From contig JALOQK010000002.1 in the NCBI GenBank assembly GCA_025453395.1, positions 85,625-149,624 on the forward strand: a DNA stretch of 64,000 nt, in the 5' to 3' direction. Shown one piece after another: positions 1,195 to 63,516 of the stretch; position 1 is the first letter of the stretch; each line of letters begins with the position of its first letter. This stretch comes from Candidatus Omnitrophota bacterium. GTDB taxonomy: Bacteria; Omnitrophota; Gorgyraeia; Gygaellales; Profunditerraquicolaceae. The position numbers and the translations under genes are program-made. Below the pieces are notes generated by a model that had not been told where the DNA came from, made no database searches, and was given only the letters and a program-made list of their open reading frames with translations.

Positions 1195-3824
1195 AAGCGG
1201 ATATTTTAAGAGAAAAATATTTGGATTTTTTTAAATCCAAAAAGCATAAGGTTGTCTTAAGCGATTCTTTGATTCCTGTTGATGACCCTACGGTTTTATT
1301 TACTCCTGCCGGGATGAACCAATTTAAAAAACAATTTATGGGGTTTAACGCAGGTTTTACCCGCGCGGTAAGTTCTCAGCGTTGCCTGCGCACTGATGAC
1401 CTGGATAAAGTGGGGAAAACCGCCGTGCATCATACTTTCTTTGAGATGCTGGGTAATTTTTCTTTTGGCGATTATTTTAAAGATGAGGCGATACAGTGGG
1501 CGTGGGAATTCTTAATTGAAGAATTAAAGATCCCCCAAGAAAGGCTTTGGGTTTCAGTTTACCAAGAGGATAGCGAAGCATATTTAATTTGGAAGGATAA
1601 AGTCGGTATCCCTAAAGAGAGAATTGTGAAGTTAGGCGATCATGATAATTTCTGGCCGGCAGATGCCAAAGAAAAAGGCCCCAACGGCCCCTGCGGCCCC
1701 TGTTCAGAAATATTTTATGACTTTGGAGAAGATGTTGGCTGTGGTGAGAAAGTTTGTGATCCGTCTTGTTCCTGCGGCAGATTTGCCGAGATTTGGAATT
1801 TAGTTTTTACCCAGTATAACCGCAAAGACGGCGGTATCTTGGAACCGTTGCCAAAGAAAAATATTGATACCGGTATGGGCTTGGAGCGCTTGACTGCGGT
1901 AATGCAGGGCGTGAAAAATAATTTCCAGACTGAATTGTTTCAGCCGATTGTTAAAGAAATAGAGGACAGAGGACAGAGGACAGAGGACAGAGAAAAAGAG
2001 AACCTGCTTTACGCGGTAAGCGACCATATTCGTGCTGTAGTTTTCTCAATTTATGACGGGGTTATTCCTTCTAATGAGGCAAGAGGCTATGTAATAAGGA
2101 AAATTATCCGTAAGAGCCTGATGCATCTTAGGGCACTTGAAGTGAAGTTGCCGTTTTTATATAAATTAGTCCCGGTTGTATCGCAGGTAATGCTTAAGCC
2201 TTATCCAGAATTAAGAGAGCGTCAGGAAAATATCACCCAGATAATCTTAAGCGAGGAAAAGGCTTTCATTGCCACTCTTGAAACCAGCGATAAAATATTG
2301 TCCGATAAGTTCTCGGATAAGAAAAACTCCCAAGAAGATATATTAGGTGTTTTGGCCTTTGAGCTTTATGACACAAACGGAGTTCCTTTTGAAATTACTA
2401 AAGATTGGTTGTCTAAAAATAAATTTAGTTTCAAAGAAGAGAAGTTAGAAACTTGTTTTTCTTCCTGTATGGAAGAACAAAAGGCCCGCTCTAAACAAAA
2501 AAGCGCGATGAAGGGAGACGTCTTTGGTTTATCGCACGCGCATTTAGCAGTAAAGAAGACAAACTTTTTGGGGTATAAGAGTTTTTCAGGAACAGCCAAG
2601 TTGCTTAAGATTTTAACTGGCAAAAGCCAAGGAAAGAAAATAAAAGAGGGCGAAGAGGCGGTAGTAATTCTTGATAAGACTTGCTTTTATCCTGAATCTG
2701 GCGGCCAAGTCGGCGACACAGGGCTTATTATTAAGGGTAAGAATATTTTTGAAGTTTTAAGTACGCAAAAAGTGGACAAGGTAATTTTGCATCACGGTAG
2801 AGTTAAAAAGGGAAGTTTCAAGCTTCTTGATCAGGTAACCGCAGAGGTAGACCAGAAGAGGCGTATGGATATTGCCCGTAATCATACTACTACTCATCTT
2901 TTGCAAGCAGCATTAAGAAAAGTGCTGGGTGAGCATATTCGTCAGCAGGGATCTTTAGTTTCAGAAGAAAAATTGCGTTTTGACTTTAGCCACTTTAAAG
3001 CTATAACCGGTGAAGAACTTTCACGCATTGAAGAAGAAGTGAATAAAAATATTCTGGAGGCAGTTTCTTTAGAAGTTAAGGAAATGCCAATTGCTATGGC
3101 CAAGAAAAAAGGGGCATTGGCGTTTTTTGGCGAGAAATATGAGGATAAAGTGCGCATGGTTAGTGTCGCCGATGTGTCGCGCGAGCTTTGCGGCGGGACG
3201 CATCTAGACAATACTGCGCAAGCTGGAAGCTTTAAAATTATCCATGAAAGTTCTGTAGCAAGCGGGGTTAGAAGAATTGAGGCAGTGACTGGTTTAGCTT
3301 CCTATAAGGCTTTTAAGAAAGAGGAAGAGCTTCTTGGAGATCTGGCTCAAACTTTTAATGTGAATCAAGAAAGTTTAAAAATAGCCGCCCAGAAAAGTTT
3401 AGCCCGGGTCAAGGAACTGGAAAAAGAATTAAGCGCTAATAAAATGACTAATCTTAAATCCGGTATTGACCAGATTATAAATAGTGCATGCGAGATAAAT
3501 GGCGTAAAATTTATTGGCGCATCTTTAGATAATCTTGACATACAGCTATTGCGTAAGAATATGGATTTGGTTAAGGAGAAAACCAATAACGCGGTTGTGG
3601 CCTTGGCATCAGCAACAGCCGGTAAAGTATTTTTGGTTATTGGGGTGACCTCGGATATTGCTGGAACAAAATTTGACGCTAATATGATCATTAAACAGGT
3701 GGGGCAATTTATCGGTGGTTCAGGCGGGGGAAGAGCGGATTTTGCCCAAGCAGGCGGCACAAAGCCAGAGAATATAGATTTAGTCTTTGACCAGATTAAG
3801 AAAATAATGGGGAATTTACAATGA
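1191..3824 (+). CDS. alaS: alanine--tRNA ligase
   Basis: 877 aa with class II AlaRS motifs, the editing-domain HxxxH/CGGTH zinc motif and a C-terminal DHHA1 domain; contains an in-frame heptamer repeat insertion at 1963-1990. Confidence 0.95.
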   Translation: MKADILREKYLDFFKSKKHKVVLSDSLIPVDDPTVLFTPAGMNQFKKQFMGFNAGFTRAVSSQRCLRTDDLDKVGKTAVHHTFFEMLGNFSFGDYFKDEAIQWAWEFLIEELKIPQERLWVSVYQEDSEAYLIWKDKVGIPKERIVKLGDHDNFWPADAKEKGPNGPCGPCSEIFYDFGEDVGCGEKVCDPSCSCGRFAEIWNLVFTQYNRKDGGILEPLPKKNIDTGMGLERLTAVMQGVKNNFQTELFQPIVKEIEDRGQRTEDREKENLLYAVSDHIRAVVFSIYDGVIPSNEARGYVIRKIIRKSLMHLRALEVKLPFLYKLVPVVSQVMLKPYPELRERQENITQIILSEEKAFIATLETSDKILSDKFSDKKNSQEDILGVLAFELYDTNGVPFEITKDWLSKNKFSFKEEKLETCFSSCMEEQKARSKQKSAMKGDVFGLSHAHLAVKKTNFLGYKSFSGTAKLLKILTGKSQGKKIKEGEEAVVILDKTCFYPESGGQVGDTGLIIKGKNIFEVLSTQKVDKVILHHGRVKKGSFKLLDQVTAEVDQKRRMDIARNHTTTHLLQAALRKVLGEHIRQQGSLVSEEKLRFDFSHFKAITGEELSRIEEEVNKNILEAVSLEVKEMPIAMAKKKGALAFFGEKYEDKVRMVSVADVSRELCGGTHLDNTAQAGSFKIIHESSVASGVRRIEAVTGLASYKAFKKEEELLGDLAQTFNVNQESLKIAAQKSLARVKELEKELSANKMTNLKSGIDQIINSACEINGVKFIGASLDNLDIQLLRKNMDLVKEKTNNAVVALASATAGKVFLVIGVTSDIAGTKFDANMIIKQVGQFIGGSGGGRADFAQAGGTKPENIDLVFDQIKKIMGNLQ
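1963..1990 (+). repeat. heptanucleotide microsatellite (GAGGACA)x4, in-frame inside alaS (encodes EDRGQRTEDR)
   Basis: Four perfect tandem heptamers read directly from the sequence. Confidence 0.9.
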
Positions 3825-5050
3825 AGATCATCCGTCCTACAGGCAAGCAATTAGAGAAAATATGCCAGCGCGCCTCTTGGCGTTCCAAGCGCGTGGAAGA
3901 AAAGGTCAAGAAAATAATTGAGGATGTGCGCCTTTTTGGCGATGAGGCCGTGCTTAAATATACCCGTAAGTTTGACGGGGTGCGTATGCCAGCGCGGCAG
4001 CTGCGCGTTTCACAGATAGAAATTAGCGGCGCCTATCAGAACATCACCCCTAATTTTATTCCCACTTTGAAGATGGTCATGGAAAATGTGAATAGATTTT
4101 ATCGTAAGACCATCAAGAAATCATGGAGGATAAAAGACGCGGACGGGATATCTTTGGGCGAGAATTATACTGCCTTAGAAAGAGTGGGGATTTATATCCC
4201 TGCCGGGACCGCGCCGTTGGTTTCTACGGTTTACATGACAGTTTTGCCTGCCAGGATCGCCGGGGTGAAGAAAATTGTGTTGGCCAGCCCTCCGGACAAA
4301 AATGGTTTTATTAACCCGCATATTCTGGTTATGGCGGATTTATTAAAGGTAGATGAGATCTATCGCGTGGGCGGAGCGCAGGCCATTGCGGCTTTAGCTT
4401 ATGGTACAAAGACTATTGCCCGGGTTGATAAAATTGTCGGGCCGGGGAATGTGTACGTAAGCGAAGCCAAGCGGCAGGTTTTTGGCAAGGTGGATATTGA
4501 TATGATTGCCGGGCCAACGGAGTTGGTAGTTATTGCTAACCGTTTGACTGATCCGGACTTTATTGTTTCGGACCTTAAGGCGCAGGCCGAACATAGCGCG
4601 GGATTGGCGATTTTAATTACCAATTCTAAATCTTTGGCCAAAGAAATAAACAGCCGTTGTTCCGAAGACAACGGGTATATTATTTTGGTCAAGAATTTAG
4701 AGCAGGCAGTTGAGATTTCAAATCAGATTGCTCCGGAGCATCTGGAAATTCTGGTGAATAACCCGAACCGTTTGGTAAAATTAGTGAAAAATGCGGGAGC
4801 AGTTTTCTTAGGGCCTTATAGCCCGGCGGCAGTCGGAGATTATGTGGCCGGCCCCAGCCACGTTTTGCCCACATCCGGCACAGCCAGATTTTTCTCCGGG
4901 CTTTGCGCAACAGACTTTATCAAAAGTATCCATGTTATCGGTTATTCCAAAAAAGCCCTTGAGAAAGTAAAAGAGCCTTTAGAGAAAATAGCCGGTATTG
5001 AGGGTTTGTTGCGGCACGTGGATTCGGTAAAAGCAAGGTTTAATAAATAG
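3821..5050 (+). CDS. hisD: histidinol dehydrogenase
   Basis: 409 aa with conserved HisD motifs (GPGNVYV, AEHSAG); ATGA overlap with alaS. Confidence 0.93.
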   Translation: MKIIRPTGKQLEKICQRASWRSKRVEEKVKKIIEDVRLFGDEAVLKYTRKFDGVRMPARQLRVSQIEISGAYQNITPNFIPTLKMVMENVNRFYRKTIKKSWRIKDADGISLGENYTALERVGIYIPAGTAPLVSTVYMTVLPARIAGVKKIVLASPPDKNGFINPHILVMADLLKVDEIYRVGGAQAIAALAYGTKTIARVDKIVGPGNVYVSEAKRQVFGKVDIDMIAGPTELVVIANRLTDPDFIVSDLKAQAEHSAGLAILITNSKSLAKEINSRCSEDNGYIILVKNLEQAVEISNQIAPEHLEILVNNPNRLVKLVKNAGAVFLGPYSPAAVGDYVAGPSHVLPTSGTARFFSGLCATDFIKSIHVIGYSKKALEKVKEPLEKIAGIEGLLRHVDSVKARFNK

Positions 5051-17136: not shown

Positions 17137-18088
17137 AAAACCAAGAATTGCTATTACTATGGGGGATCCTTCCGGGATCGGCCCTGAAATTATTGCCAAA
17201 TCTTTGAATAAAATTAAAGGCTTGGCAGATTTTACAATTATTGGCGATGCCTTTGTTTTAGAAAAGTCCGGGTGCGACTTTAGAAAGAACAAAGTAAGGC
17301 TTGTGGATTTGAATAATGTTTCGCCCGGGGATTTTTGTTTTGGAAAGACCAGGGCTTCTTATGGCAGGGCCTGTGTTGATTATCTTGATGTTTGCGTGAG
17401 AATGGCAGCAAACAACCAAGTTGACTGCATAGTTACTTCTCCTGTATCCAAAGAGGCGCTAAGCATGGCAGGATTTAATATTGTCGGGCATAGTGAATAT
17501 TTCAAGAAGGCTTTTGGCGTTAAGAACATCGTAATGATGCTTCTAAACAAAAGTTTACGTTTCGCGCTTTTGACCAGGCATATACCCTTAAAAGATGTTT
17601 CCGGCAGTATTAATGCCAGCGGCCTAAAGCAGACATTTTGCCTTACCGTGGAATCGCTTAACAAGATGTTTTCCATTAAAACTCCGCGGCTTGTTATCTG
17701 CGCGCTTAATCCGCATGCTTCAGATAATGGCACGATAGGGGATGAAGAAAATAAAATCATTAAGCCGTTTTTGGCCGCAATAGGCAAAAATAAAGGTTAT
17801 TCGGTAAAACTTCTTCCGGCAGATGTGGCAATAAAAAAGATGGACCAGAAATTATTTGATTGCGCGCTTGCCTTGTATCATGATCAGGCGCTTATCCCCT
17901 TGAAATTGTCCGGGGATGATACAGGGGTAAATATCACCCTGGGGCTGCCATTGGTACGCACGTCGGCTTTACACGGGGTCGGTTTTGATATAGCCGGCAA
18001 GAATCTGGCGCGCCCCGATTCATTCATTACCGCAGTAAAACAAGCGGTATCTTGTTTCAAAAACAGCAAATATGCGCGTAATCGCTAA
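17123..18088 (+). CDS. pdxA: 4-hydroxythreonine-4-phosphate dehydrogenase
   Basis: 321 aa with N-terminal IAITMGDPSGIGPEI and the conserved metal-binding histidines. Confidence 0.9.
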   Translation: MSMIKKPRIAITMGDPSGIGPEIIAKSLNKIKGLADFTIIGDAFVLEKSGCDFRKNKVRLVDLNNVSPGDFCFGKTRASYGRACVDYLDVCVRMAANNQVDCIVTSPVSKEALSMAGFNIVGHSEYFKKAFGVKNIVMMLLNKSLRFALLTRHIPLKDVSGSINASGLKQTFCLTVESLNKMFSIKTPRLVICALNPHASDNGTIGDEENKIIKPFLAAIGKNKGYSVKLLPADVAIKKMDQKLFDCALALYHDQALIPLKLSGDDTGVNITLGLPLVRTSALHGVGFDIAGKNLARPDSFITAVKQAVSCFKNSKYARNR

Positions 18089-18872
18089 GAAAAGATTGGG
18101 CCAGAATTTCCTTGCCGATAAAAACATGCAGGGAAAGATCATTGCTTCTTTTGGGGCAAAAGAAAAAGACCGCGTGCTTGAGATTGGCCCCGGGGAAGGG
18201 GCTTTGACTGGCGGGCTTCTTGAAAAGCGGTTGAATGTCACTGCCATAGAGTTAGATAACAGGCTTTTTAAGCTTTTAGCAGATAAATTTTCAGGATATC
18301 CTAATTTAACCCTGCTTAATCAGGATATTCTGAAAACCGATATCAGGCCTTTAGCGGCAGGGCAGAAGATAAAAGTAATCGGCAACATTCCTTACTATAT
18401 AACTACCCCGATCATCGAACATCTGTTTAATTCCAGGGAAGTTATTTCCGATGTATATCTTACGGTGCAGAAAGAATTCGCGCAAAGGGTAACTGCTTCA
18501 AGCGGCACAAAAAAGTTTGGAGCATTGAGTTGCTTTGTGCAGTATTATTCCGAACCTAAAATCTTATTTTTTATTAAAAAAGATTGTTTCTGCCCAATCC
18601 CAAAAGTGGATTCGGCATTTTTGCATTTAAAGATACTGGATAAGCCCAAGGTAGAAGTTGCCGATGAAGCATTATTTTTTAAGCTGGTGCGCACCTGTTT
18701 TCAGCAGCGTAGGAAGGTTTTATCCAATACCCTAAAAAGCCTTATCCCCAAAGAGGATATTTCTTATTTCTGCCGAGAAAACGCCTTAAAGCCAAACGTG
18801 CGAGCGGAGGAACTTTCCCTGGATATTTTCGCCAAACTTGCCAATCATAAATTTTTTCAAAAAAAAGGTTGA
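18072..18872 (+). CDS. rsmA: 16S rRNA (adenine1518/1519-N6)-dimethyltransferase
   Basis: 266 aa; LGQNFL motif, SAM-binding LEIGPGxGALT and NIPYYITTPI. Confidence 0.92.
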   Translation: MRVIAKKRLGQNFLADKNMQGKIIASFGAKEKDRVLEIGPGEGALTGGLLEKRLNVTAIELDNRLFKLLADKFSGYPNLTLLNQDILKTDIRPLAAGQKIKVIGNIPYYITTPIIEHLFNSREVISDVYLTVQKEFAQRVTASSGTKKFGALSCFVQYYSEPKILFFIKKDCFCPIPKVDSAFLHLKILDKPKVEVADEALFFKLVRTCFQQRRKVLSNTLKSLIPKEDISYFCRENALKPNVRAEELSLDIFAKLANHKFFQKKG

Positions 18873-51991: not shown

Positions 51992-52062
51992 CACCCGGCG
52001 CAATTTGATGCGCCGGTGCGCAATTATCAGGCAACACCCGGCGCAATTTGATGCGCCGGTGT
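51992..52062 (+). other. two tandem copies (43 bp period) of a GC-rich hairpin CACCCGGCGCA-ATTTGA-TGCGCCGGTG between the dehydratase large-subunit gene and pilT
   Basis: 8 bp perfect stems with 6 nt loops read from the sequence; the second is followed by a pyrimidine-rich stretch. Confidence 0.55.
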
Positions 52063-52086
52063 GCCCTTTCTGGGCAAGGAGGACTA

Positions 52087-53133
52087 ATGGAAATTAGGGA
52101 TCTTTTATTGCAGTGTATTGAAACCAAATCATCAGATCTGCACTTGACTGAAAATGAGCCTCCGCTTTTACGTATTGACGGACGCATCAATCGCACCAAA
52201 AGTAGTATTCTGGGCAGAGACGATCTTAAGAAAATGATCTATAGTATTTTGACCAGCGCCCAGAAAGAAGTGTTTGAGCGCGACCTGGAGCTGGATTTAT
52301 CATTGGCGCTTCCCGGATTAGACAGGTTCCGGGTGAATGTGCATTTGCAGAAGGGTTCTGTGGAAGCAGCCTTTCGCCGTGTGCCTCTGGATATCCCCAG
52401 TATTCAGGATTTGGGCCTGCCGCCAATAGTTTTTGATCTGGCGCGCAAACCCAACGGTTTATTTTTAGTTACCGGGCCAACCGGAGTAGGTAAGACCACA
52501 ACTTTAGCCGCGATAATTGATTTGATCAATTCCGAGCGCGAATGTTTGATGATGACCATAGAAGACCCGATAGAATTTATCCACGCGAATAAGAAAAGCG
52601 TGATCAAGCAGAGGGAAGTTTACGCGGATACGCGTTCTTTTGCCGAAGCGCTTAAGCATACATTGCGCCAGGACCCTAATGTTATTGTGGTTGGCGAAAT
52701 GCGCGATCTGGAAACTATCTCTACAACTTTGACTGCCGCGGAAACAGGGCACTTGGTATTGGCAACTTTACATACCCCTGATGCTCCGCAGACCATTCAA
52801 AGAATTATAGACGTATTCCCTCCGCATCAACAGCAACAGGTTAAATTACAGCTTGCCGACTGTTTGCAAGGAGTTGTCTCGCAGTTATTGCTGCCCAAAG
52901 CTGACGGGCACGGAAGAGTGCTTGCCACAGAGATAATGGTTGCCACCGCTGGTATCCGTAATCTTATCCGCGAGCAGGAAGTTGAGCAGGTCCCGACACT
53001 TATTCAGACCGGGAGCCAATTCGGGATGAAGACCATGGATAAATGTCTGAAAGAATTATTCCAGCAGGGGCTTATTTCTTTGGACACTGCCATGTCTAAA
53101 GTCAAGAACGTGGAAGAATTCAAGCATCTTTAA
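52087..53133 (+). CDS. pilT: type IV pilus retraction (twitching motility) ATPase PilT
   Basis: 348 aa; start MEIRDLL is preceded by an AAGGAGG RBS. Walker A GPTGVGKTTT, Asp box VGEMRD and His box ATLHT are present. The ORF track's 52048 start is upstream and in-frame. Confidence 0.88.
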   Translation: MEIRDLLLQCIETKSSDLHLTENEPPLLRIDGRINRTKSSILGRDDLKKMIYSILTSAQKEVFERDLELDLSLALPGLDRFRVNVHLQKGSVEAAFRRVPLDIPSIQDLGLPPIVFDLARKPNGLFLVTGPTGVGKTTTLAAIIDLINSERECLMMTIEDPIEFIHANKKSVIKQREVYADTRSFAEALKHTLRQDPNVIVVGEMRDLETISTTLTAAETGHLVLATLHTPDAPQTIQRIIDVFPPHQQQQVKLQLADCLQGVVSQLLLPKADGHGRVLATEIMVATAGIRNLIREQEVEQVPTLIQTGSQFGMKTMDKCLKELFQQGLISLDTAMSKVKNVEEFKHL

Positions 53134-53695: not shown

Positions 53696-54076
53696 TTGCT
53701 AATGGAAAATAAAGGGGCAAGTTTTCAGAGTAATTATGATATAAAAAACAGGACCTACGCTTTCTCGGTTAGTATTGTTAATTTTGTTTCTGATTTACCA
53801 AAAGATAACGCAACTCACATTATTTCTAATCAATTGTTGGCTAGTGCTACAAGTGTAGGTGCTAATGTTATTGAAGCGCAAGCATCAAGTTCACGCAAAG
53901 ATTTTACAAATTTCTTGAATCATTCTTTGAAATCAGGAAATGAGACAAAATATTGGCTATGTTTGTTACGGGATACTGGCAGAGCCGAATATCCTAAAGT
54001 CAGCAAGCTTATTAATGAAGTAACTGAAATTAATAATATACTTGGAAAAAGCATTATTACTTTACGTAATAAGTAG
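53696..54076 (+). CDS. four-helix-bundle protein (TIGR02436-like; '23S rRNA intervening-sequence protein' family)
   Basis: 126 aa; the segment SNQLLASATSVGANVIEAQASSSRKDFTNFLNHSLKSGNETKYWLCLLRD matches the family's hallmark. Confidence 0.75.
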   Translation: MLMENKGASFQSNYDIKNRTYAFSVSIVNFVSDLPKDNATHIISNQLLASATSVGANVIEAQASSSRKDFTNFLNHSLKSGNETKYWLCLLRDTGRAEYPKVSKLINEVTEINNILGKSIITLRNK

Positions 54077-55222: not shown

Positions 55223-55660
55223 GTGATGTTACATCAGGTTGCTAAAAGCACAGTATCAAAAACAGCGCCTTATGAAAAACTCAAGTTTTATCAGGATATT
55301 TGCCAGATTCGCAAGTTAACCTATCAAATAACAGAGAATATTGTTCGTTCACATATGCGTTTAGCTTCTCAGATGAGAGATGCCGCGCGTTCTGCTAAGC
55401 AAAATCTAAGAGAAGGATATCGCAAAGGCACATTAGGAGAATTTATACATAGCATAAAGATAAGTCAGGGGTCTTTAGCAGAGTTAAGTGGCGACATGGA
55501 AGATTGCTTGGAAGACGGTATTATTCAGAAAACTGATTTTGATATTTTTATGAAGCTTTATCGTAGTGCAGACTATATGTCAAATAGGTATTTAATTTCG
55601 TTATATAAGATAGAAAAAGAAGGCACATGGCGCACTTTCGCTAAGCGTAGTGCTAAATAG
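55223..55660 (+). CDS. four-helix-bundle protein (TIGR02436-like), second paralog
   Basis: 145 aa (YEKLKFYQ.., GSLAEL..) of the same family as 53696-54076. Confidence 0.7.
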   Translation: MMLHQVAKSTVSKTAPYEKLKFYQDICQIRKLTYQITENIVRSHMRLASQMRDAARSAKQNLREGYRKGTLGEFIHSIKISQGSLAELSGDMEDCLEDGIIQKTDFDIFMKLYRSADYMSNRYLISLYKIEKEGTWRTFAKRSAK

Positions 55661-56763: not shown

Positions 56764-58017
56764 ATGGACTATGATTTAATTATTATCGGCGCCGGTTGGG
56801 CGGGATTGACCGCTGCTAAAAAGGCTGTCAAGTCCGGGATGAAAGTCTGCCTGATTGAGAAGGATAAAACAGGCGGTGTCTGCCTTAACCGCGGGTGTAT
56901 TCCTACCAAGGCTTTAATACATTGGGCTAAAATAAATTCTCTTAATTCTAAACCCGTAGATTTTTCCCTTGCCCAGGCGAAAAAGAATAAAATTGTTTCT
57001 CAGCTTGCCGCGGGAGTGCAATTTTCTTTAAAAGGCGTAGACGTTTTAGCTGCTACGGCAAAATTAACCGGCCCCAATAAAGTCCTAGCCGGCGATAAAG
57101 AAATTAGCGCTAAATTCATTCTTGTTTCAACCGGTTCGCTGCCTTTTGAATTGCCGGATTTAAAATTTGCTGCGCCTAAGATTATTTCCAGTGATCAACT
57201 ATTGCAATTGGAGAAGCTGCCCCCGGAAATACTAATTGTGGGAGCCGGGGTGATCGGATGCGAGTTTGCTTCGTTATTCAATCAATTAGGGGTAAAAGTC
57301 ACCCTCGCGGAGAAAATGCCGTTTATCTTGCCTGGGCAGGACGCGCAGATCCAGAAGAAAATAGAAACAACTTTTAAGAAAAAAGGGATCAATGTTTTGA
57401 TTGATGCTGATGTAAAAAGTATGAATTTGGACGGCTATTCTTTGATAGCTGTCTGCGTGGGTAGAGTTGCTAATGTTTCCCTCCAGGGCGCTCAAGAGGT
57501 CGGATTAAAGATCCAGAAGCAGGGATTCGCAGTGGATGAATATTTACGCACGACTGTGCCCAATATTTTTGCCGCTGGAGACTGCACCGGAAAGATTATG
57601 CTTGCGCATTATGCTTCTTATCAGGCAGAAGTGGCAGTGGATAATATGCTGGGGGCTAATAGAAAAGCCGATAATCCTTATGTGCCCAATTGCATTTTTA
57701 CCGATCCTTTGATTGCGAGCGTTGGCTTAACTGAAGAAGAGGCGATGAAGCGGGCAGTGGATACGGTTATGCACAAGTTTGATTTTATGGCTTCGGGCAT
57801 GGCCAGAGTGATGGATGCCGCCGAAGGTTTTATAAAGATTATTTCTGATAAAGCAAGTGGCAAGATCTTAGGCGCCAGCATGATCGGGCCGGAAGTTACC
57901 GAGCTTATATCTGTTATTACTGTGGCAGCTTCCAACGGTTTGACCGTAAAACAGCTTAAGGAAACTATTTTTGCTCATCCGACTTTGAGTGAATCTATCC
58001 GCGAGGCGTTAGAATAA
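56764..58017 (+). CDS. lpdA: dihydrolipoyl dehydrogenase (E3) / pyridine nucleotide-disulfide oxidoreductase
   Basis: 417 aa with the redox-active CLNRGC site and a C-terminal HPTLSE dimerisation motif. Confidence 0.8.
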   Translation: MDYDLIIIGAGWAGLTAAKKAVKSGMKVCLIEKDKTGGVCLNRGCIPTKALIHWAKINSLNSKPVDFSLAQAKKNKIVSQLAAGVQFSLKGVDVLAATAKLTGPNKVLAGDKEISAKFILVSTGSLPFELPDLKFAAPKIISSDQLLQLEKLPPEILIVGAGVIGCEFASLFNQLGVKVTLAEKMPFILPGQDAQIQKKIETTFKKKGINVLIDADVKSMNLDGYSLIAVCVGRVANVSLQGAQEVGLKIQKQGFAVDEYLRTTVPNIFAAGDCTGKIMLAHYASYQAEVAVDNMLGANRKADNPYVPNCIFTDPLIASVGLTEEEAMKRAVDTVMHKFDFMASGMARVMDAAEGFIKIISDKASGKILGASMIGPEVTELISVITVAASNGLTVKQLKETIFAHPTLSESIREALE

Positions 58018-58034
58018 GAGAGAGAGGACTTGTT

Positions 58035-58265
58035 ATGATTGAAGTTAAACTTCCAGAGTTGGGCGAGGGGATCAAGCAGGCTACAGTTTCTTACTGGTTT
58101 TTTCAGGAAGGGCAAGCTGTAAAAGAAAAAGAAGAATTAGTTGAACTTACTACCGACAAAGCCACTTTTAATCTTCCCAGTCCGGCAAGCGGAGTATTAA
58201 AACAGGTGCTTATTAAGGAAGGCGAAACCATCGCCATCGGCACCGTCTTGGCAATAATATCGTAG
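58035..58265 (+). CDS. free-standing lipoyl/biotinyl attachment domain protein (resembles an E2 N-terminal lipoyl domain; possibly a truncated E2)
   Basis: 76 aa with the lipoyl-lysine motif TDKAT; the stop codon lies inside the left terminal inverted repeat of the downstream element. Confidence 0.7.
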   Translation: MIEVKLPELGEGIKQATVSYWFFQEGQAVKEKEELVELTTDKATFNLPSPASGVLKQVLIKEGETIAIGTVLAIIS

Positions 58266-58506
58266 ACGCTTTAGCTAACCCCATGTAGCACAATAACTTA
58301 TGAAACAAATACGCCATAGAAAAGGGGCACTTTGCCTTTCTGCCCCGAAAGGGCGCACTTGGCATTCATTTTTGCCAAGGTGCAATAGGCAAAGGTGCGT
58401 CCCAGTAATTAGCGTACTTTGCCTTCCTGTGATTTTAGTTTTTTAAACCCTACCCATATTTGTTTTGTAATCTTTTGTGTGGCATAGTATTAGCTAAAGC
58501 GTCTAC
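58263..58506. mobile_element. 244 bp element bounded by perfect 17 bp inverted repeats (GTAGACGCTTTAGCTAA / TTAGCTAAAGCGTCTAC) with an internal ~80 nt GC-rich extended hairpin (58324-58403); MITE or structured ncRNA
   Basis: Inverted repeats and nested complementary blocks (GGGGCACTTTGCC..GGCAAAGGTGCGTCCC; GCGCACTTGGCA..TGCCAAGGTGCA) read from the sequence. Confidence 0.55.
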
Positions 58507-58521
58507 AATGAATTATTTTAC

Positions 58522-58550
58522 TTGACAAGGGATTATTTGTTTGGTATATG
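58522..58550 (+). promoter_or_regulatory. sigma70-like promoter TTGACA-17-(TGg)TATATG upstream of the HTH/ACP/reductase genes
   Basis: Perfect -35 and an extended -10 read from the sequence. Confidence 0.5.
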
Positions 58551-58580
58551 TAGGATTAGTTAAGATATGTTAAAAGAGGT

Positions 58581-58817
58581 GTGGATATGAAAGAGAAGAA
58601 AAGCAAAGAAATTATGACCGCAAAAGATGTGGCAGATTATCTGGGATTGCATCCTTTGACTGTGCACCGTTACGCCCGCCAGGGTAAAATTCCCGCGTTT
58701 AAGATCGGCACTGATTGGAGATTTCACCGTAAGTATATTGAGCGCTGGATCAAGGAAAAGTTGACTTGTCAGGCTAGGGCCCAAGTTGTACTCAACACAG
58801 AAAAACCGCAATCATAA
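58581..58817 (+). CDS. excisionase-family helix-turn-helix DNA-binding protein (likely ATG start at 58587)
   Basis: TAKDVADYLGLHPLTVHRYARQGKIPAFKIGTDWRF matches the Xis/MerR-like HTH_17 pattern. Confidence 0.7.
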   Translation: MDMKEKKSKEIMTAKDVADYLGLHPLTVHRYARQGKIPAFKIGTDWRFHRKYIERWIKEKLTCQARAQVVLNTEKPQS

Positions 58818-58842
58818 TTATATTTTTTAAGGAGGCTTATGC

Positions 58843-59094
58843 ATGGCAAAAAACATTGAAGAAATAAAGAAGGAAACGAGGAAGCTGGTAGCTGAAATAA
58901 CCGAGCGGCCGGAGGATGAGCTTAAAGACGAAAGCCGCTTTGTGGAAGATTTAGGCATAGACAGTATGATGGCCCTTGAGATTGTGGCAAGCCTTGAGAA
59001 AAAATATAAAATCGTTATCCCCGAAGAAGAAATCCCAAACGTGCGTTCCCTTGTCAACGTCTTTGCCATGCTGGAGAAGTTAATCAAAGCGTGA
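58843..59094 (+). CDS. acyl carrier protein
   Basis: 83 aa with the phosphopantetheine attachment motif LGIDSMMALEI. Confidence 0.85.
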   Translation: MAKNIEEIKKETRKLVAEITERPEDELKDESRFVEDLGIDSMMALEIVASLEKKYKIVIPEEEIPNVRSLVNVFAMLEKLIKA

Positions 59095-60134
59095 TGAAGA
59101 AAAAAGTTTTCCTTACCGGCGCAACCGGGCTTGTCGGCTCATACCTTGCCAAAATTCTTCTTTCCGAAGGCCATAAAATCATCGCTTTGGCCCGCTTCGC
59201 TTCAAATAAAAATCCCCCACAGAGAGTAAAAGAAGCTTTAAATTTATGGGGACAAATTGCCCTTGATAATCTTGAAGTTTTAGAAGGGGATATCTGCCTT
59301 GCGGATTTAGGATTAGACAAAAAATCCCGCGCGCGTTTAGATAAAATTCAGGAAATCTTCCACTGTGCGGCAATTACCGATTTAAATCTTCCCATAGAGA
59401 AACTGCGTCAAACCAATGTCACCGGCACAAAAAACATTCTGGAGTTGTCTTTATCGCTTAAGAAAAAATCCAAGCTTGAAAGAACCAGCCACATAAGTAC
59501 CGCCTATGTCTATGGAAATTATGCTGGCACCTTTACCGAGAAAGATTTAGATAAAGGCCAAAGTTTTCCCACCAATTACGAAAAATCCAAATTTGAAGCT
59601 GAGATTTTAGCCTATGATTACCGCAGGCAGGGCCTTTGGGTTGATATTTACCGGCCATCCATGGTTATCGGAGATTCCACAACCGGCCGCATTTTTGAAT
59701 CCAAACATATGTATCAGCTCTTGAAACTTTGTTCGCTTGAGATTTTTCCAGAGTTTCCCCTGAAAAATTCCTGGGCAAGCCTTGTCCCGGTAGATCTAAC
59801 CTGTCAGGCGATTTATATTTTATGGTCGCGCCACCAAAAACCAAATTGCACATTTCACCCGTTTCCGGCGCGCTTGGTGTCAATAGAGCAGATGCTTGAT
59901 ATCGCGGGAGAGATCATGGGTTTTAAGCCTCCTAAAGTTGTAAGTTTAGAGCAATTTAAGCCGGTTAATCTTACTCCGGCACAGCGCAAAATATTGCAGG
60001 AAACCATCTTTAACATAAATTTCCACACCGGCCTGGATTCAACTTACACCAATAATCTTCTTCAAGGTTACGGTTTTACCATGCCGGAAGTGGATGAAAA
60101 GATGCTTCGCGTGATCTTAGCGAAGAGCGCTTGA
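59091..60134 (+). CDS. NAD(P)-dependent epimerase/dehydratase-family (extended SDR; thioester-reductase-like) protein, ATGA-coupled to the ACP gene
   Basis: 347 aa with TGATGLVGSYL Rossmann and YxxxK catalytic motifs. Confidence 0.75.
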   Translation: MMKKKVFLTGATGLVGSYLAKILLSEGHKIIALARFASNKNPPQRVKEALNLWGQIALDNLEVLEGDICLADLGLDKKSRARLDKIQEIFHCAAITDLNLPIEKLRQTNVTGTKNILELSLSLKKKSKLERTSHISTAYVYGNYAGTFTEKDLDKGQSFPTNYEKSKFEAEILAYDYRRQGLWVDIYRPSMVIGDSTTGRIFESKHMYQLLKLCSLEIFPEFPLKNSWASLVPVDLTCQAIYILWSRHQKPNCTFHPFPARLVSIEQMLDIAGEIMGFKPPKVVSLEQFKPVNLTPAQRKILQETIFNINFHTGLDSTYTNNLLQGYGFTMPEVDEKMLRVILAKSA

Positions 60135-60195
60135 CAAAATAACAGCAGGAATATATAATTAACATTAATGTTAACAATGTATCCCCAGCTATATT

Positions 60196-60783
60196 ATGCA
60201 TTATTTACAGCTTAGCAAGTTAAATAAGAAGCCTTATTTTGATATAGGCCAAATAGCCGATACCTTAGGGATTACGAAGCCTTCGGCGCGGGTTATTGCC
60301 AGCCGTTATGTAAAACAAGGGATACTAATTAGGCTCAAAAACAATTGTTATGTTACTTCCGAGCGCTGGCAGGCGCTTGATTCAATGGCTTTGTTTTCTC
60401 TTGCCAATATCCTGCAGGTGCCTTCGTATATATCATTTCTTTCTGCTTTAGGCTTTCATGAAATATCTACCCAGGTTGCGCGTGGCGTTATTGAAAGTGT
60501 TTCTCTTAAGCGTTCCCGTTCTATCCGTGTAAAAGAGCAAGAATTTGTTTATTATAAACTTAGGAAAAAACATTATTTCGGTTTTCATAAGAAAGATGGT
60601 ATTTTTATGGCAACTGCCGAAAAGGCGCTTGCCGACGCTTGTTATCTTTATTCATTAAACCGTTATGCGCTTGATTTTTCCGCGCTTAACCTTTCCCGTT
60701 TAAATAAGCGCGAATTATCAGGTGTCATCAGGCATTACCCAAAACGTACGCAGCAGATAGTGAAAAAAATATGCAAGATTTAA
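60196..60783 (+). CDS. AbiEi-like antitoxin/transcriptional regulator (type IV TA / abortive infection)
   Basis: 195 aa with an N-terminal wHTH-like region; overlaps the downstream AbiEii-family gene by 13 nt. Confidence 0.5.
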   Translation: MHYLQLSKLNKKPYFDIGQIADTLGITKPSARVIASRYVKQGILIRLKNNCYVTSERWQALDSMALFSLANILQVPSYISFLSALGFHEISTQVARGVIESVSLKRSRSIRVKEQEFVYYKLRKKHYFGFHKKDGIFMATAEKALADACYLYSLNRYALDFSALNLSRLNKRELSGVIRHYPKRTQQIVKKICKI

Positions 60784-61439
60784 TTAAGCAGGAACAATTT
60801 GAGTTAGAGGTATTGGATAAGTTAAATACCGCGCGCCTGTTGAATAAACTTATTTTCTGCGGCGGCACGATGCTTAGGCTTTGTTATGGGCTCCAGAGAT
60901 TTTCTGTAGATCTTGATTTTTGGCTGGCGCGCAAGGTCTCCCACGCGAAACTTTTTAAAGAATTAAAAGATATTCTATCCGCTTCCTATACAATAAGAGA
61001 TAGTGCTAATAAATTTCACACTATTCTTTTTGAAATTAAATCAAGCCGTTATCCGCGCGCGCTAAAGATCGAAGTGCGAAAACAGGCAAGAAAGGTAAAA
61101 GCCGATACTGCCATTGCCTATAGCCAATATTCTAATACTCAAGTATTTCTTAAAGTTCTGTCTTTGCAAGATATGATGCGCAATAAGGCAGAAGCTTTCC
61201 TAAGCCGTAAAGAAGCCCGGGATATCTTTGATATGGAGTTTTTGTTTAAGAAGGGGATTTTGTTGGGGATCCCTAAGAAGGATATCGGCAAGATACTTTC
61301 TACCCTTGATGCGTTGACAAAGAAAGATTATCAGGTAAAATTAGGTGCGCTACTTTTGCCCGAACAGCGCGCCTATTACACAAAAGAAAATTTTAAGATT
61401 TTAAGAATGGCGTTAGAGGAGCGTATTTCTTCCATATAA
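60771..61439 (+). CDS. nucleotidyltransferase AbiEii/AbiGii toxin family protein
   Basis: 222 aa; CGGTMLRLCYGLQRFSVDLDFW matches the family's GG..DxD nucleotidyltransferase signature. Confidence 0.72.
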   Translation: MQDLIKQEQFELEVLDKLNTARLLNKLIFCGGTMLRLCYGLQRFSVDLDFWLARKVSHAKLFKELKDILSASYTIRDSANKFHTILFEIKSSRYPRALKIEVRKQARKVKADTAIAYSQYSNTQVFLKVLSLQDMMRNKAEAFLSRKEARDIFDMEFLFKKGILLGIPKKDIGKILSTLDALTKKDYQVKLGALLLPEQRAYYTKENFKILRMALEERISSI

Positions 61440-61440
61440 T

Positions 61441-62043
61441 ATGCAAAATACATTTTCCGAACAGCTTCTAGATTTGATTAAACAGCGCGCCAGTATCCGC
61501 CGCTACCAAGATAAGCCTGTGCCTAAGGAGATTTTGGATAAAATTATTGAGGCAGGCATTTGGGGGCCGTCTTTGATGGCTCCGGGATTTCAGCCGTGGA
61601 AATTTGTAGTTATACAGGATGCCGGCAAGATCAAGAAATTATCCGAGATTATGTTTGTCAAATCCAAACAATTAGGCGCTGGAGCAAATGTTATTACACG
61701 AATAAGCGCAGAAACAATTGCAAGTGCTAAAGTATTGGTGGTAATTTATAATTGTTCTGCAGTTGTTTCTTTTGTTAAAAGAATTAACGAGGATTATATG
61801 AAAATGGCTAGACAAGCTGAAATTGCAGCTATTTCAGCAGTTATACAAAATATGATTCTAGTCGCAGAAGGATTTGGCTTGGGTTCTTGTTGGCTTGATA
61901 CGCCTTTATTTTGTAAAGATGGAATAAATGAATTTGTTAAGCCTGAGGGTGAACTTGTGGCAATGCTTACTTTGGGTTATCCGGCAGAAAAAGGTAAAAG
62001 ATGCAAAAGAAAGCCGCTAAGTGAGTCAGTCATCTATGAGTAA
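61441..62043 (+). CDS. nitroreductase family protein
   Basis: 200 aa with a nitroreductase fold (RRYQDKPVPKEIL.., GLGSCW); base composition shifts within the gene at ~61680. Confidence 0.8.
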   Translation: MQNTFSEQLLDLIKQRASIRRYQDKPVPKEILDKIIEAGIWGPSLMAPGFQPWKFVVIQDAGKIKKLSEIMFVKSKQLGAGANVITRISAETIASAKVLVVIYNCSAVVSFVKRINEDYMKMARQAEIAAISAVIQNMILVAEGFGLGSCWLDTPLFCKDGINEFVKPEGELVAMLTLGYPAEKGKRCKRKPLSESVIYE

Positions 62044-62061
62044 GAAAGAGAGTCTTTTGAA

Positions 62062-63516
62062 ATGAACGAAAAATATGATGTAGTGATTATTGGGGCTGGG
62101 ATTGGGGGGCTTGTCTGCGGATGCTATCTGGCTAAAGCAGGGTTAAAGGTTATGATTGTAGAGCAGCATGATAAGCCGGGGGGCTATTGTACTTCTTTCC
62201 AGAGAAAAGGCTACACTTTTGATGCTGGAGGACATTATTTGGGTGGCATTAGAAATGGCATGCTTGGGAAAGTATTAACTGAAATAGGTGTTATGGACGT
62301 TATGAAGTTTAATCAGTTTAATCCGGTTGACACAATTATTTTTCCCGATTCCTCTGTTCATATTTATGCTGATATTGAAGATACAATAATGGATATGCAA
62401 AAAGTTTTTCCAAAAGAAAAGAATAATATTACTAATTTTTTTAAGTTTATACTCGACAAAGATTTTCTTTCGATTTACAAAAAGATTAAGAGGTTAAGTT
62501 TTCAATTAGTTTTAGATGAATACTTTGAAGATAATAGATTAAAAGCTAAGTTTGAAGTTTTGCTAGGGGGGCTAGGCTTACCTTCTGATAAAGTGTCTGC
62601 TGTTAGTGCGACACTTCTTTTCAGGGAAACAGTATGTGATCCAGGTTGGTATCCTAAGAAAGGATTGCAATCATTTCCTGATTTGCTATCCGATATCATA
62701 AGAAGCAATGGTGGTAAGATTATTTTCGGTAAGAAAGTTGCTAAAATATTATGTGAGAACAATGAGGCAAAAGGAGTTGTCTTAAATGATGGCGTTAAAT
62801 TCTTATCCAATGCTGTTATTTCAAACGCTGATGCGATACAAACTTTTACTAAGCTTATTGATTTGGAGAGTAAAGAAAAACAACTAGGAATAGATTACAT
62901 TATTTCTCCTTCTGCTTTTTTTGTTTATCTGGGCTTAAAAGATGGGGTTGAGAAAATAATAAAATCTCCTTCTAATATGCTGATTTTCTCGGATTATGAC
63001 TTAAAGAAGTATTACTGTAATTTTGATCATTTTGCAATAGATAATGAATTAATAAAATATGTTGTTTGTATTTTCTCATCTTTGCATTCGGGAGATAATA
63101 AAATAAAACGTGCTATGGAATTGTTCACAATAGTTCCGTTTAAGAGTGATGATTTCTGGAAAAGACACAGAGTATCTTTTATGGATGGCATGCTTGATTT
63201 TACTATTCGCAACATAGCTGGTTTAAGAGATTATATAGATATTAAGTTTAATGCCACACCAAGCACTTTTCATAAATATACTTTAAATAGTGATGGAGCT
63301 GCTTATGGTTGGGCTTCTACTCCTAATTTGATTACAAAGCCAATTTTTATGAGTCGTAGTTCTATAAGGAAACTATATTTAGCTGGACATTGGTGTAATG
63401 GTGGCTTGTGTCAAGGTGGAGTTCCGCAAGTAGCTGTTATGGGAAGGACAACAGCGCGCTCTGTAATTGAGGATGCTGGATTAAAATGGCAGTATAAATA
63501 TAATTTACTAATCTAA
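62062..63516 (+). CDS. FAD-dependent oxidoreductase of the phytoene desaturase (CrtI)/amine-oxidase family
   Basis: 484 aa with an N-terminal VVIIGAGIGGL..E..GG dinucleotide-binding motif; AT-rich. Confidence 0.75.
   Translation: MNEKYDVVIIGAGIGGLVCGCYLAKAGLKVMIVEQHDKPGGYCTSFQRKGYTFDAGGHYLGGIRNGMLGKVLTEIGVMDVMKFNQFNPVDTIIFPDSSVHIYADIEDTIMDMQKVFPKEKNNITNFFKFILDKDFLSIYKKIKRLSFQLVLDEYFEDNRLKAKFEVLLGGLGLPSDKVSAVSATLLFRETVCDPGWYPKKGLQSFPDLLSDIIRSNGGKIIFGKKVAKILCENNEAKGVVLNDGVKFLSNAVISNADAIQTFTKLIDLESKEKQLGIDYIISPSAFFVYLGLKDGVEKIIKSPSNMLIFSDYDLKKYYCNFDHFAIDNELIKYVVCIFSSLHSGDNKIKRAMELFTIVPFKSDDFWKRHRVSFMDGMLDFTIRNIAGLRDYIDIKFNATPSTFHKYTLNSDGAAYGWASTPNLITKPIFMSRSSIRKLYLAGHWCNGGLCQGGVPQVAVMGRTTARSVIEDAGLKWQYKYNLLI

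Follow-up and report, generated by a model that had tools for sequence, protein, structure and literature searches.

Is a short lipoyl-domain gene that ends inside an inverted repeat the remnant of a longer enzyme gene, or is it a complete gene with a mobile element at its end? The question arises in a 64,000-nucleotide stretch of Candidatus Omnitrophota DNA (contig JALOQK010000002.1, positions 85,625 to 149,624, hereafter the window), in which a 76-amino-acid open reading frame (ORF) runs into a perfect 17-bp inverted repeat, present as first described at 58262–58278 and 58490–58506. The initial annotation read the gene as a dihydrolipoamide acyltransferase (E2) truncated by an insertion. Our analysis points to a different answer: the 245-bp segment bounded by the repeat is very probably a transposase-less derivative of a Y1 (HUH) transposase element family, located at the last codons of an intact lipoyl gene. 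The idea of an inserted element as such held up, given that the same termini flank transposase genes 7.2 kb away and in another Omnitrophota locus (L032).

Lipoyl-domain gene

The lipoyl-carrier gene (58035–58265, forward strand) is a stand-alone, complete gene for a 76-amino-acid protein, as judged from Pfam, homologues and their alignment. Biotin_lipoyl (PF00364) spans residues 3–75/76 of the protein (E = 4e-20), and the best NCBIfam matches are SucB-type E2 models, to whose first 76 positions the protein aligns. The description of an E2-type N-terminal lipoyl domain following a dihydrolipoyl dehydrogenase (E3) gene was therefore accurate. A search of 5.8 billion proteins yielded 1474 homologues, and the best 120 of these were all 76–86 amino acids long (120/120). 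Where source names were available, the best matches were "lipoyl domain-containing" proteins of Candidatus Omnitrophica/Omnitrophota, and a protein identical to the window product carries the locus tag MUF05_01925 in a Candidatus Omnitrophica metagenome-assembled genome (MAG).

In an alignment of 28 homologues, the lipoyl-lysine motif TDKA (T40-D41-K42-A43) was invariant, and the C-terminus of the window protein fell in the same column as that of many natural 76-amino-acid homologues. The nearest tail, that of homologue P0099, reads LAIISEA where the window protein ends in LAIIS, two residues apart; the nearest homologue shares 72–75% identity with the window protein. Protein loss attributable to the element at the gene's end is at most about two non-conserved C-terminal residues.

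Pfam detected no subunit-binding or 2-oxoacid_dh catalytic domains in the ORFs from 58581 to 63516. We also ran tblastn searches with Escherichia coli SucA, SucB, AceE and AceF against the window and against L001, a 20-kb locus of the same contig from a JGI assembly that extends 4 kb past the window; the lipoyl domain was the sole match, and E. coli Lpd matched E3 only. No remnants of an E1 or E2 catalytic domain were found by tblastn in the window or in the 4 kb past its end; the initial annotation had suggested looking for the missing E2 linker and catalytic domain beyond the right end of the downstream island. A literature search for stand-alone lipoyl proteins in Omnitrophica returned nothing relevant.

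The window protein shares with the E2 lipoyl domains of 2-oxoacid dehydrogenases the PF00364 fold family, the DKA lipoyl-lysine and a genetic link to E3. It differs from them in being a separate 76-amino-acid protein, conserved as such across the phylum, in having no E1 or E2 core nearby (window plus 4 kb), and in that relatives have a lipoate-ligase gene between E3 and the lipoyl gene. Some E3 proteins bear an N-terminal lipoyl domain of their own, for example Neisseria P64k. A module of E3, ligase and 76-amino-acid lipoyl protein with no E1 or E2 nearby could constitute an E2-independent lipoyl redox relay. For annotation, the 76-amino-acid product should be treated as a complete, conserved lipoyl-carrier protein, which removes a false pseudogene call (disrupted E2).

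Orthologous loci in relatives

Three related loci (L003, L006 and L008) share the gene string PilT, LeuD, Iso_dh, MDH, E3, LplA-B_cat, lipoyl and HTH_17. Their E3 proteins have 429–436 amino acids, and their lipoyl proteins, 78 amino acids long and 67–72% identical to the window protein, stand alone at the position where an intact E2 had been anticipated. In the window, the E3-like gene (56764–58017, forward strand) encodes 417 amino acids with Pfam Pyr_redox_2 and Pyr_redox_dim domains, scores 403 bits against the TIGR01350 lipoamide_DH model (cutoff 409), shares 46–51% full-length identity with E3 of L003 and L008, and is separated from the lipoyl gene by 17 nt (58018–58034). Given that stand-alone lipoyl proteins of 76–86 amino acids follow E3 in relatives that lack the inverted-repeat element, we regard the truncation of an acyltransferase as refuted.

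The lipoate-protein ligase gene of the relatives (LplA-B_cat, 215–238 amino acids) lies between E3 and the lipoyl gene in each case (L003 5292–6008, L006 4385–5032, L008 4338–4988). No LplA-B homologue was found by tblastn in the window or the next 4 kb; the lipoate ligase of this genome may be encoded elsewhere or may have been lost.

The interval between the lipoyl and HTH_17 genes measures 133–231 nt in the three relatives. In each of them an intrinsic terminator, a hairpin plus T-run, comes after the stop codon of the lipoyl gene and precedes a TTGACA/TATAT promoter of the HTH_17 gene. The inverted-repeat element is absent from this orthologous intergenic site, and its G[TC]AGACGCTTT core occurs nowhere in the three loci. 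In the window the intrinsic terminator is missing and the 245-bp segment occupies its place. Given that the terminator, and not the segment, is found at the same site in all three relatives, the segment is lineage-specific. Just to its right, a putative HTH_17 promoter (58522–58550, forward strand; TTGACA, 17 nt, TATATG) was recognized by reading the sequence; with G as the last base of its -10 hexamer, it escaped a consensus promoter scan. L003, L006 and L008 have this TTGACA...TATAT(G/A) arrangement ahead of HTH_17 as well. The gene itself (58587–58817, forward strand) encodes an excisionase-type DNA-binding protein (Pfam HTH_17, E = 2e-16) that is 75% identical to its L003 orthologue. Since HTH_17 and its promoter are syntenic with, and the protein 75% identical to, those of a relative, the variable low-GC block of the window starts only after HTH_17, and the proposal that the whole downstream island was inserted into the lipoyl gene is not supported. 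The variable block is unconnected with the lipoyl gene.

Miniature element

The 245-bp element (58262–58506) was delimited by its terminal inverted repeats (TIRs) and the homology of its ends, and it has the features of a non-autonomous derivative, similar to a miniature inverted-repeat transposable element (MITE), of a TIR-flanked Y1-transposase element. Its left TIR, GTAGACGCTTTAGCTAA (17 bp, 58262–58278, forward strand), holds the TAG stop codon of the lipoyl gene at 58263–58265, and its right TIR (17 bp, 58490–58506, reverse strand) is the perfect reverse complement of the left. The initial annotation was thus right to place the stop codon inside the left arm and the reverse complement downstream, but two details needed correction: the TAG corresponds to bases 2–4 of the 17-mer and not to bases 1–3, the first G belonging to the last Ser codon as its third base, and the distance between the arms is 228 bp from start to start, with 211 bp in between, not 227 bp. 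Complementarity continues imperfectly into extended arms of 53 nt each (58259–58311, forward strand, and 58457–58509, reverse strand; 77% complementary), the left of which contains a subterminal block, (A)CAAAACAAATA, common to full copies of the element. The arms enclose a hairpin-rich core of 145 bp (58312–58456) with the motifs GCAC(T)TTGCC and GGCAAAGGTGC, unrelated to the transposase gene. Matches to the 17-mer with at most three mismatches occurred three times in the window, against a mean of 0.16 and a maximum of 1 in 100 dinucleotide shuffles; the third match (57037, three mismatches) falls within the E3 gene and looks like chance.

A 261-nt stretch covering this region folds as one long stem with a branched, hairpin-rich core. 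Its folding energy as RNA was -96 kcal/mol (z = -8.4 against shuffles), with similar values for the other strand (-97.8 kcal/mol, z = -8.1), and as single-stranded DNA (ssDNA) it reached -48.5 kcal/mol (z = -6.2). Two further assemblies, L001 (JGI) and L002 (Logan), contain this sequence too, so the element and its junction with the gene are not an assembly artefact.

The ends of the segment tie it to larger elements. Its right end (58447–58506) matches the left end of a 922-bp full copy in this genome at 83% identity across 60 nt, and its left 50 nt are 78% identical to an end of that copy. The core has no blastn similarity to full copies beyond the ends, and ORFs in the element past the end of the lipoyl gene are at most 50 amino acids long, too short for a transposase of 228–236 amino acids (no Pfam search was made of these ORFs). 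With matching ends, an unrelated core and only short ORFs, the 245-bp element is best explained as a non-autonomous derivative of the full element.

Full-length elements and their transposases

A full-length, TIR-flanked element of 922 bp lies on the same contig, 7.2 kb downstream of the miniature element and just outside the window (L001 17680–18601, equivalent to about 65714–66635 in window numbering). Its termini, 17680–17696 and 18585–18601, are an inverted pair of the identical 17-mer, and it encodes a Y1 transposase of 236 amino acids (17810–18520). This copy begins 6 nt after the stop codon of a 7TM-GAF histidine kinase gene. A related element of 847 bp occurs in the Omnitrophota MAG DeMMO4_15 (L032 3681–4527), again between inverted identical 17-mers (3681–3697 and 4511–4527), with a transposase of 228 amino acids (3805–4491) that is 55% identical to the 236-amino-acid protein. 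A composite transposon formed by the miniature and full copies was rejected, given that the 7.2-kb segment between them includes conserved backbone genes.

Both transposases matched Pfam Y1_Tnp (43.8 bits for L001 and 53.1 bits for L032, cutoff 23), and the best NCBIfam match of both was the REP-associated tyrosine transposase model NF047646 (REP, repetitive extragenic palindrome) at 64.4 and 64.9 bits, below the cutoff of 80. The L001 protein has the motifs NHYH, WQ and YIERNP, all of which are kept in L032. The transposases carry a C-terminal extension of ~100 amino acids, and Pfam reports Y1_Tnp alone at E≤0.01; a phmmer search against PDB sequences gave nothing at E≤0.01. We recovered 2593 transposase homologues at E≤1e-10, mostly of 228 amino acids; those with a source name came from Omnitrophota or unclassified bacteria, and many were on contigs of ~900 bp, as would be expected of repeats that break assemblies.

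Further members show how the termini vary. Full-length elements of the family from which the window element derives are about 830–920 bp long with one Y1 gene each, and their TIRs begin with GTAGACGCTTT; across the family, the termini retain an invariant AGACGCTTT core within G[T/C]AGACGCTTT. Both window arms have GTAG at their outer end, a form of the terminal GT[AG]G tetranucleotide of REPs, and L106 has GCAG. L110 has 18-nt TIRs, GTAGACGCTTTACCTAA and TTAATTAAAGCGTCTAC, with 89% complementarity, and L103 a 62-nt repeat with 74% complementarity. L106 bears a perfect 17-bp repeat, GCAGACGCTTTCCCCAA (2876–2892 and 3705–3721), that differs from the window termini at four positions; given that the sequence is altered and yet the perfect repeat is kept, both ends of this element changed together. 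Two genomes with transposases that are just 55% identical carry the 17-mer unchanged, indicating strong constraint on the ends, as would fit transposase recognition sites. Six single 60-nt ends did not self-fold as ssDNA (-0.1 to -2.6 kcal/mol, z 0 to +1.9). Since single ends do not fold, they are true TIRs and not REP palindromes or IS200-type hairpins.

We scanned both strands of the GTDB representative genomes for the 17-mer (596 Gb, ~70 chance matches expected) and obtained 36 loci, of which only L032, and perhaps L028, is meaningful; several of the single matches lie in apparent groEL coding sequence. Among JGI metagenome contigs the 17-mer turned up 54 times, always singly and in a chance-like manner, and the window's own contig was not among the contigs recovered. 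Neither of the two scans brought up the paired copy of this genome. L028 1368–1384, in the Omnitrophota MAG JPNA_metabat.7, is a lone exact 17-mer. The 290 nt that remain of this locus hold no partner, and a transposase gene is likewise missing; the sequence may represent an isolated end or belong to a further non-autonomous copy.

Omnitrophota thus host a large TIR-flanked Y1 family with a sharply conserved terminus, GTAGACGCTTT, together with a miniature derivative. The conserved ends offer a concrete DNA substrate for studying end recognition by HUH enzymes of this type.

Alternative explanations

Three other accounts of the locus were weighed against a transposase-less Y1 derivative at the end of an intact gene. 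If the ORF were the N-terminal remnant of an E2 whose linker and catalytic domain had been cut off by the element or by insertion of the whole island, its E2-type domain with SucB N-termini as best NCBIfam matches, its position after E3 and its stop codon within a mobile-type repeat would all be expected. There is hardly any chance of this, given that all 120 of the best 120 among 1474 homologues have the same short length of 76–86 amino acids, that relatives keep a stand-alone gene at the same position with no element beside it, that the window and the following 4 kb hold no similarity to an E2 catalytic domain or to E1, and that the C-terminus is at its natural position, with HTH_17 and its promoter syntenic downstream. 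The segment might instead be native to the locus and not mobile, as a structured RNA, a long terminator of the lipoyl operon or an HTH_17 leader. Its fold is very stable on both strands (z about -8), and it sits exactly where relatives have their terminator. An Rfam scan of 57000–59500 at E≤5 gave only chance-level matches and no known RNA family, the segment is absent from the orthologous intergenic regions of L003, L006 and L008, and its terminal and subterminal sequences recur on either side of transposase genes, both here and in other genomes, which makes a native RNA very improbable; a secondary role as terminator is compatible with a mobile element. Retron msr/msd, integron attC, 6S RNA and IS110 bridge RNA were also considered and rejected, given the absence of an adjacent reverse transcriptase or recombinase gene, the lack of an Rfam match and the agreement of the termini with a Y1-transposase element.

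The third account is a strict REPIN, that is, a REP doublet mobilized by a REP-associated tyrosine transposase (RAYT), in which each arm would be a GTAG-tagged palindrome. The segment starts with GTAG and ends with CTAC, the "double foot" described by Quentin et al. (2018; PMC6006769), and a RAYT model is the best NCBIfam match of the transposases. However, that match, at 64 bits, stays below the cutoff of 80, 60-nt ends taken singly do not self-fold, so that the arms are true TIRs rather than palindromic REP units, and one miniature copy was seen where high copy number would be expected. We therefore consider a strict REPIN unlikely.

Several observations also weigh against a transposase-less Y1 derivative. 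No second miniature copy was found by blastn or by the 17-mer scan in the 64-kb window, or in L001, and the single copy could be a one-off internal-deletion derivative rather than a member of a propagating MITE family. No empty site was found, since the nearest lipoyl homologue is only 72–75% identical. Excising exactly 58262–58506 gives a frame that reads ...IISMNYFT* into the -35 box and leaves no terminator. This product does not resemble the relatives, which leaves two possibilities: neighbouring DNA disappeared at or after insertion, or the repeat does not mark the functional ends of the element. The lost flanking DNA probably amounted to about 60–100 bp with the last two codons, the stop codon and the terminator. 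There is no target-site duplication (the element is flanked by ...AATATC and AATGAA...), and likewise none at L001 or L032. Nor did the junctions compared share a common flanking target sequence. As established for IS200/IS605, target-site duplication is not expected of Y1 transposases.

Relation to known mobile elements

Quentin et al. (2018; PMC6006769) place proteins of about 238 amino acids with NH[YF]H, W[EQ] and Y---NP motifs in subclass 2.1 of TnpA-Y1 class 2, which they equate with the TIR-associated tyrosine transposases (TIRYTs) of Di Nocera et al. (2013; PMC3733652), the enzymes that form "TIRtrons". On sequence features, the Omnitrophota family is a putative TIRtron with a TIRYT-type transposase, and the window element would be its non-autonomous derivative. 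The likeness to the TIRtrons described there lies in a single Y1/HUH gene of about 230–240 amino acids with the same motif set, in flanks that are long TIRs and not REP hairpins, and in the possible presence of short TIR-only repeats in the same genome. Four differences emerged: the TIRs here begin with GTAGACGCTTT..., whereas TIRYT flanks have a GGGG[AT][CG]A[CG] consensus as a majority feature; the Omnitrophota TIRs start with GTAG, a tag of the REP type; the C-terminal extension of the proteins examined here gave no Pfam match at E≤0.01 to an HTH-like domain (Bac_DnaA_C, HTH_23 or HTH_28); and the host phylum, Omnitrophota, was apparently not sampled in either study (PMC3733652 and PMC6006769).

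With the REPIN/RAYT system (Nunvar et al., 2010, PMC2817692; Bertels and Rainey, 2011, PMC3116915), the window element shares a non-autonomous inverted doublet with a long hairpin, presumed mobilization in trans by a Y1 transposase, the terminal GTAG and a site just 3' of a coding region. It differs in that its arms are not self-palindromic, in its greater length (245 bp, with a 145-bp structured core) and in the one miniature copy seen here, as opposed to the high copy number of REPINs. Like the MITEs of DDE insertion sequences, the element is small, has no transposase gene and carries TIRs identical to those of its autonomous partner; unlike them, it has an HUH/Y1 enzyme as partner and no target-site duplication was seen. 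Proteins of 228–236 amino acids with a Y---NP motif are also unlike IS200/IS605 (TnpA of about 150 amino acids, Y---Q, subterminal hairpins and no TIRs), and membership in that family was rejected given the presence of TIRs, the absence of end hairpins and the Y---NP motif.

Insertion sites

We compared the junctions of six loci (window, L032, L001, L106, L103 and L110). The left repeat arm has the stop codon of the upstream gene in it or close by at every one of them, and at four of the six (window, L032, L103 and L106) the upstream stop codon overlaps or sits within the left arm. In the window, the lipoyl stop is formed by bases 2–4 of the left 17-mer; in L032, the last base of the dnaE stop is also part of the repeat; in L103, the stop (to 2844) lies inside the extended arm that starts at 2840; and in L106, the upstream ORF reads through the repeat, with its stop 13 nt inside the element. 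The upstream stop precedes the repeat by 6 nt in L001 and by 38 nt in L110. A convergent gene beyond the right arm occurs at two loci, ending 0 nt from the right repeat in L106 and 4 nt from the right 17-mer in L103, and none is present in the window, L032, L001 or L110.

This pattern resembles that of REPs, which favour positions immediately 3' of coding regions according to Di Nocera et al. (2013; PMC3733652). The positions of the elements at 3' ends suggest terminator targeting without proving it. That Omnitrophota TIRYT elements home to stop codons, or to the nucleotides directly after them, and so to terminators, replacing terminators and with a GTAG end that can supply an in-frame TAG, is a tentative and rather doubtful proposal; if true, it would define a terminator-targeting Y1 family with a defined recognition sequence in a phylum without cultured genetics. 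The consistent 3'-end position suggests an interaction of the elements with terminators and an ability to alter the final codons of genes.

Possible mechanism

The sequence data show the anatomy of the segment, the homology of its ends, an autonomous copy elsewhere in this genome, conserved synteny and a complete lipoyl domain, and the following steps would connect them. The transposase encoded by the full copy may mobilize the miniature element in trans. IS608 TnpA, E. coli TnpA-REP and other HUH/Y1 enzymes act on ssDNA, and the ssDNA ends of the element could pair into a 17–53-bp stem that presents GTAG/CTAC "feet" to the transposase. In the present arrangement, the first bases of the element complete the last Ser codon and supply the TAG stop of the lipoyl gene. 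The stem of 17–53 bp would probably provide the lipoyl mRNA with its 3' end structure, as terminator or stabilizer, and translation termination may be hindered, given that the stop codon is buried in the stem.

Neighbouring genes

Downstream of HTH_17, the variable low-GC block (58843–63516, forward strand) contains genes for an acyl carrier protein, a thioester reductase, an AbiEi-like/AbiEii toxin–antitoxin pair, a nitroreductase and an amine oxidase. HTH_17 and the 7TM-GAF histidine kinase gene, which adjoin in L008, lie on either side of this block, and the GC content drops from about 0.44 to 0.31–0.39 between 60000 and 63800. Among NCBIfam models, the HTH_17 protein (58587–58817) matches the MADS defence-system HTH protein MAD1 best, with 58.7 bits against a cutoff of 80 that it does not reach. 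Another HTH_17 gene lies 9 kb downstream (L001 19574–20231), directly 5' of a gene for a 1088-amino-acid SMC_N/AAA protein, and this pair is possibly a defence locus.

Upstream of E3, two genes for "23S rRNA intervening-sequence protein" (four-helix bundle, PF05635) lie at 53696–54076, between LeuD and Iso_dh, and at 55223–55660, between Iso_dh and MDH. Neither operon position is occupied by a gene in L003, L006 and L008, making these further small lineage-specific insertions. A PilT/T2SSE ATPase gene (52048–53133) lies between the Aconitase (large) and Aconitase_C (small) subunit genes of a LeuCD-type dehydratase, and this order, with PilT between the two subunits, is kept in all Omnitrophota relatives examined.

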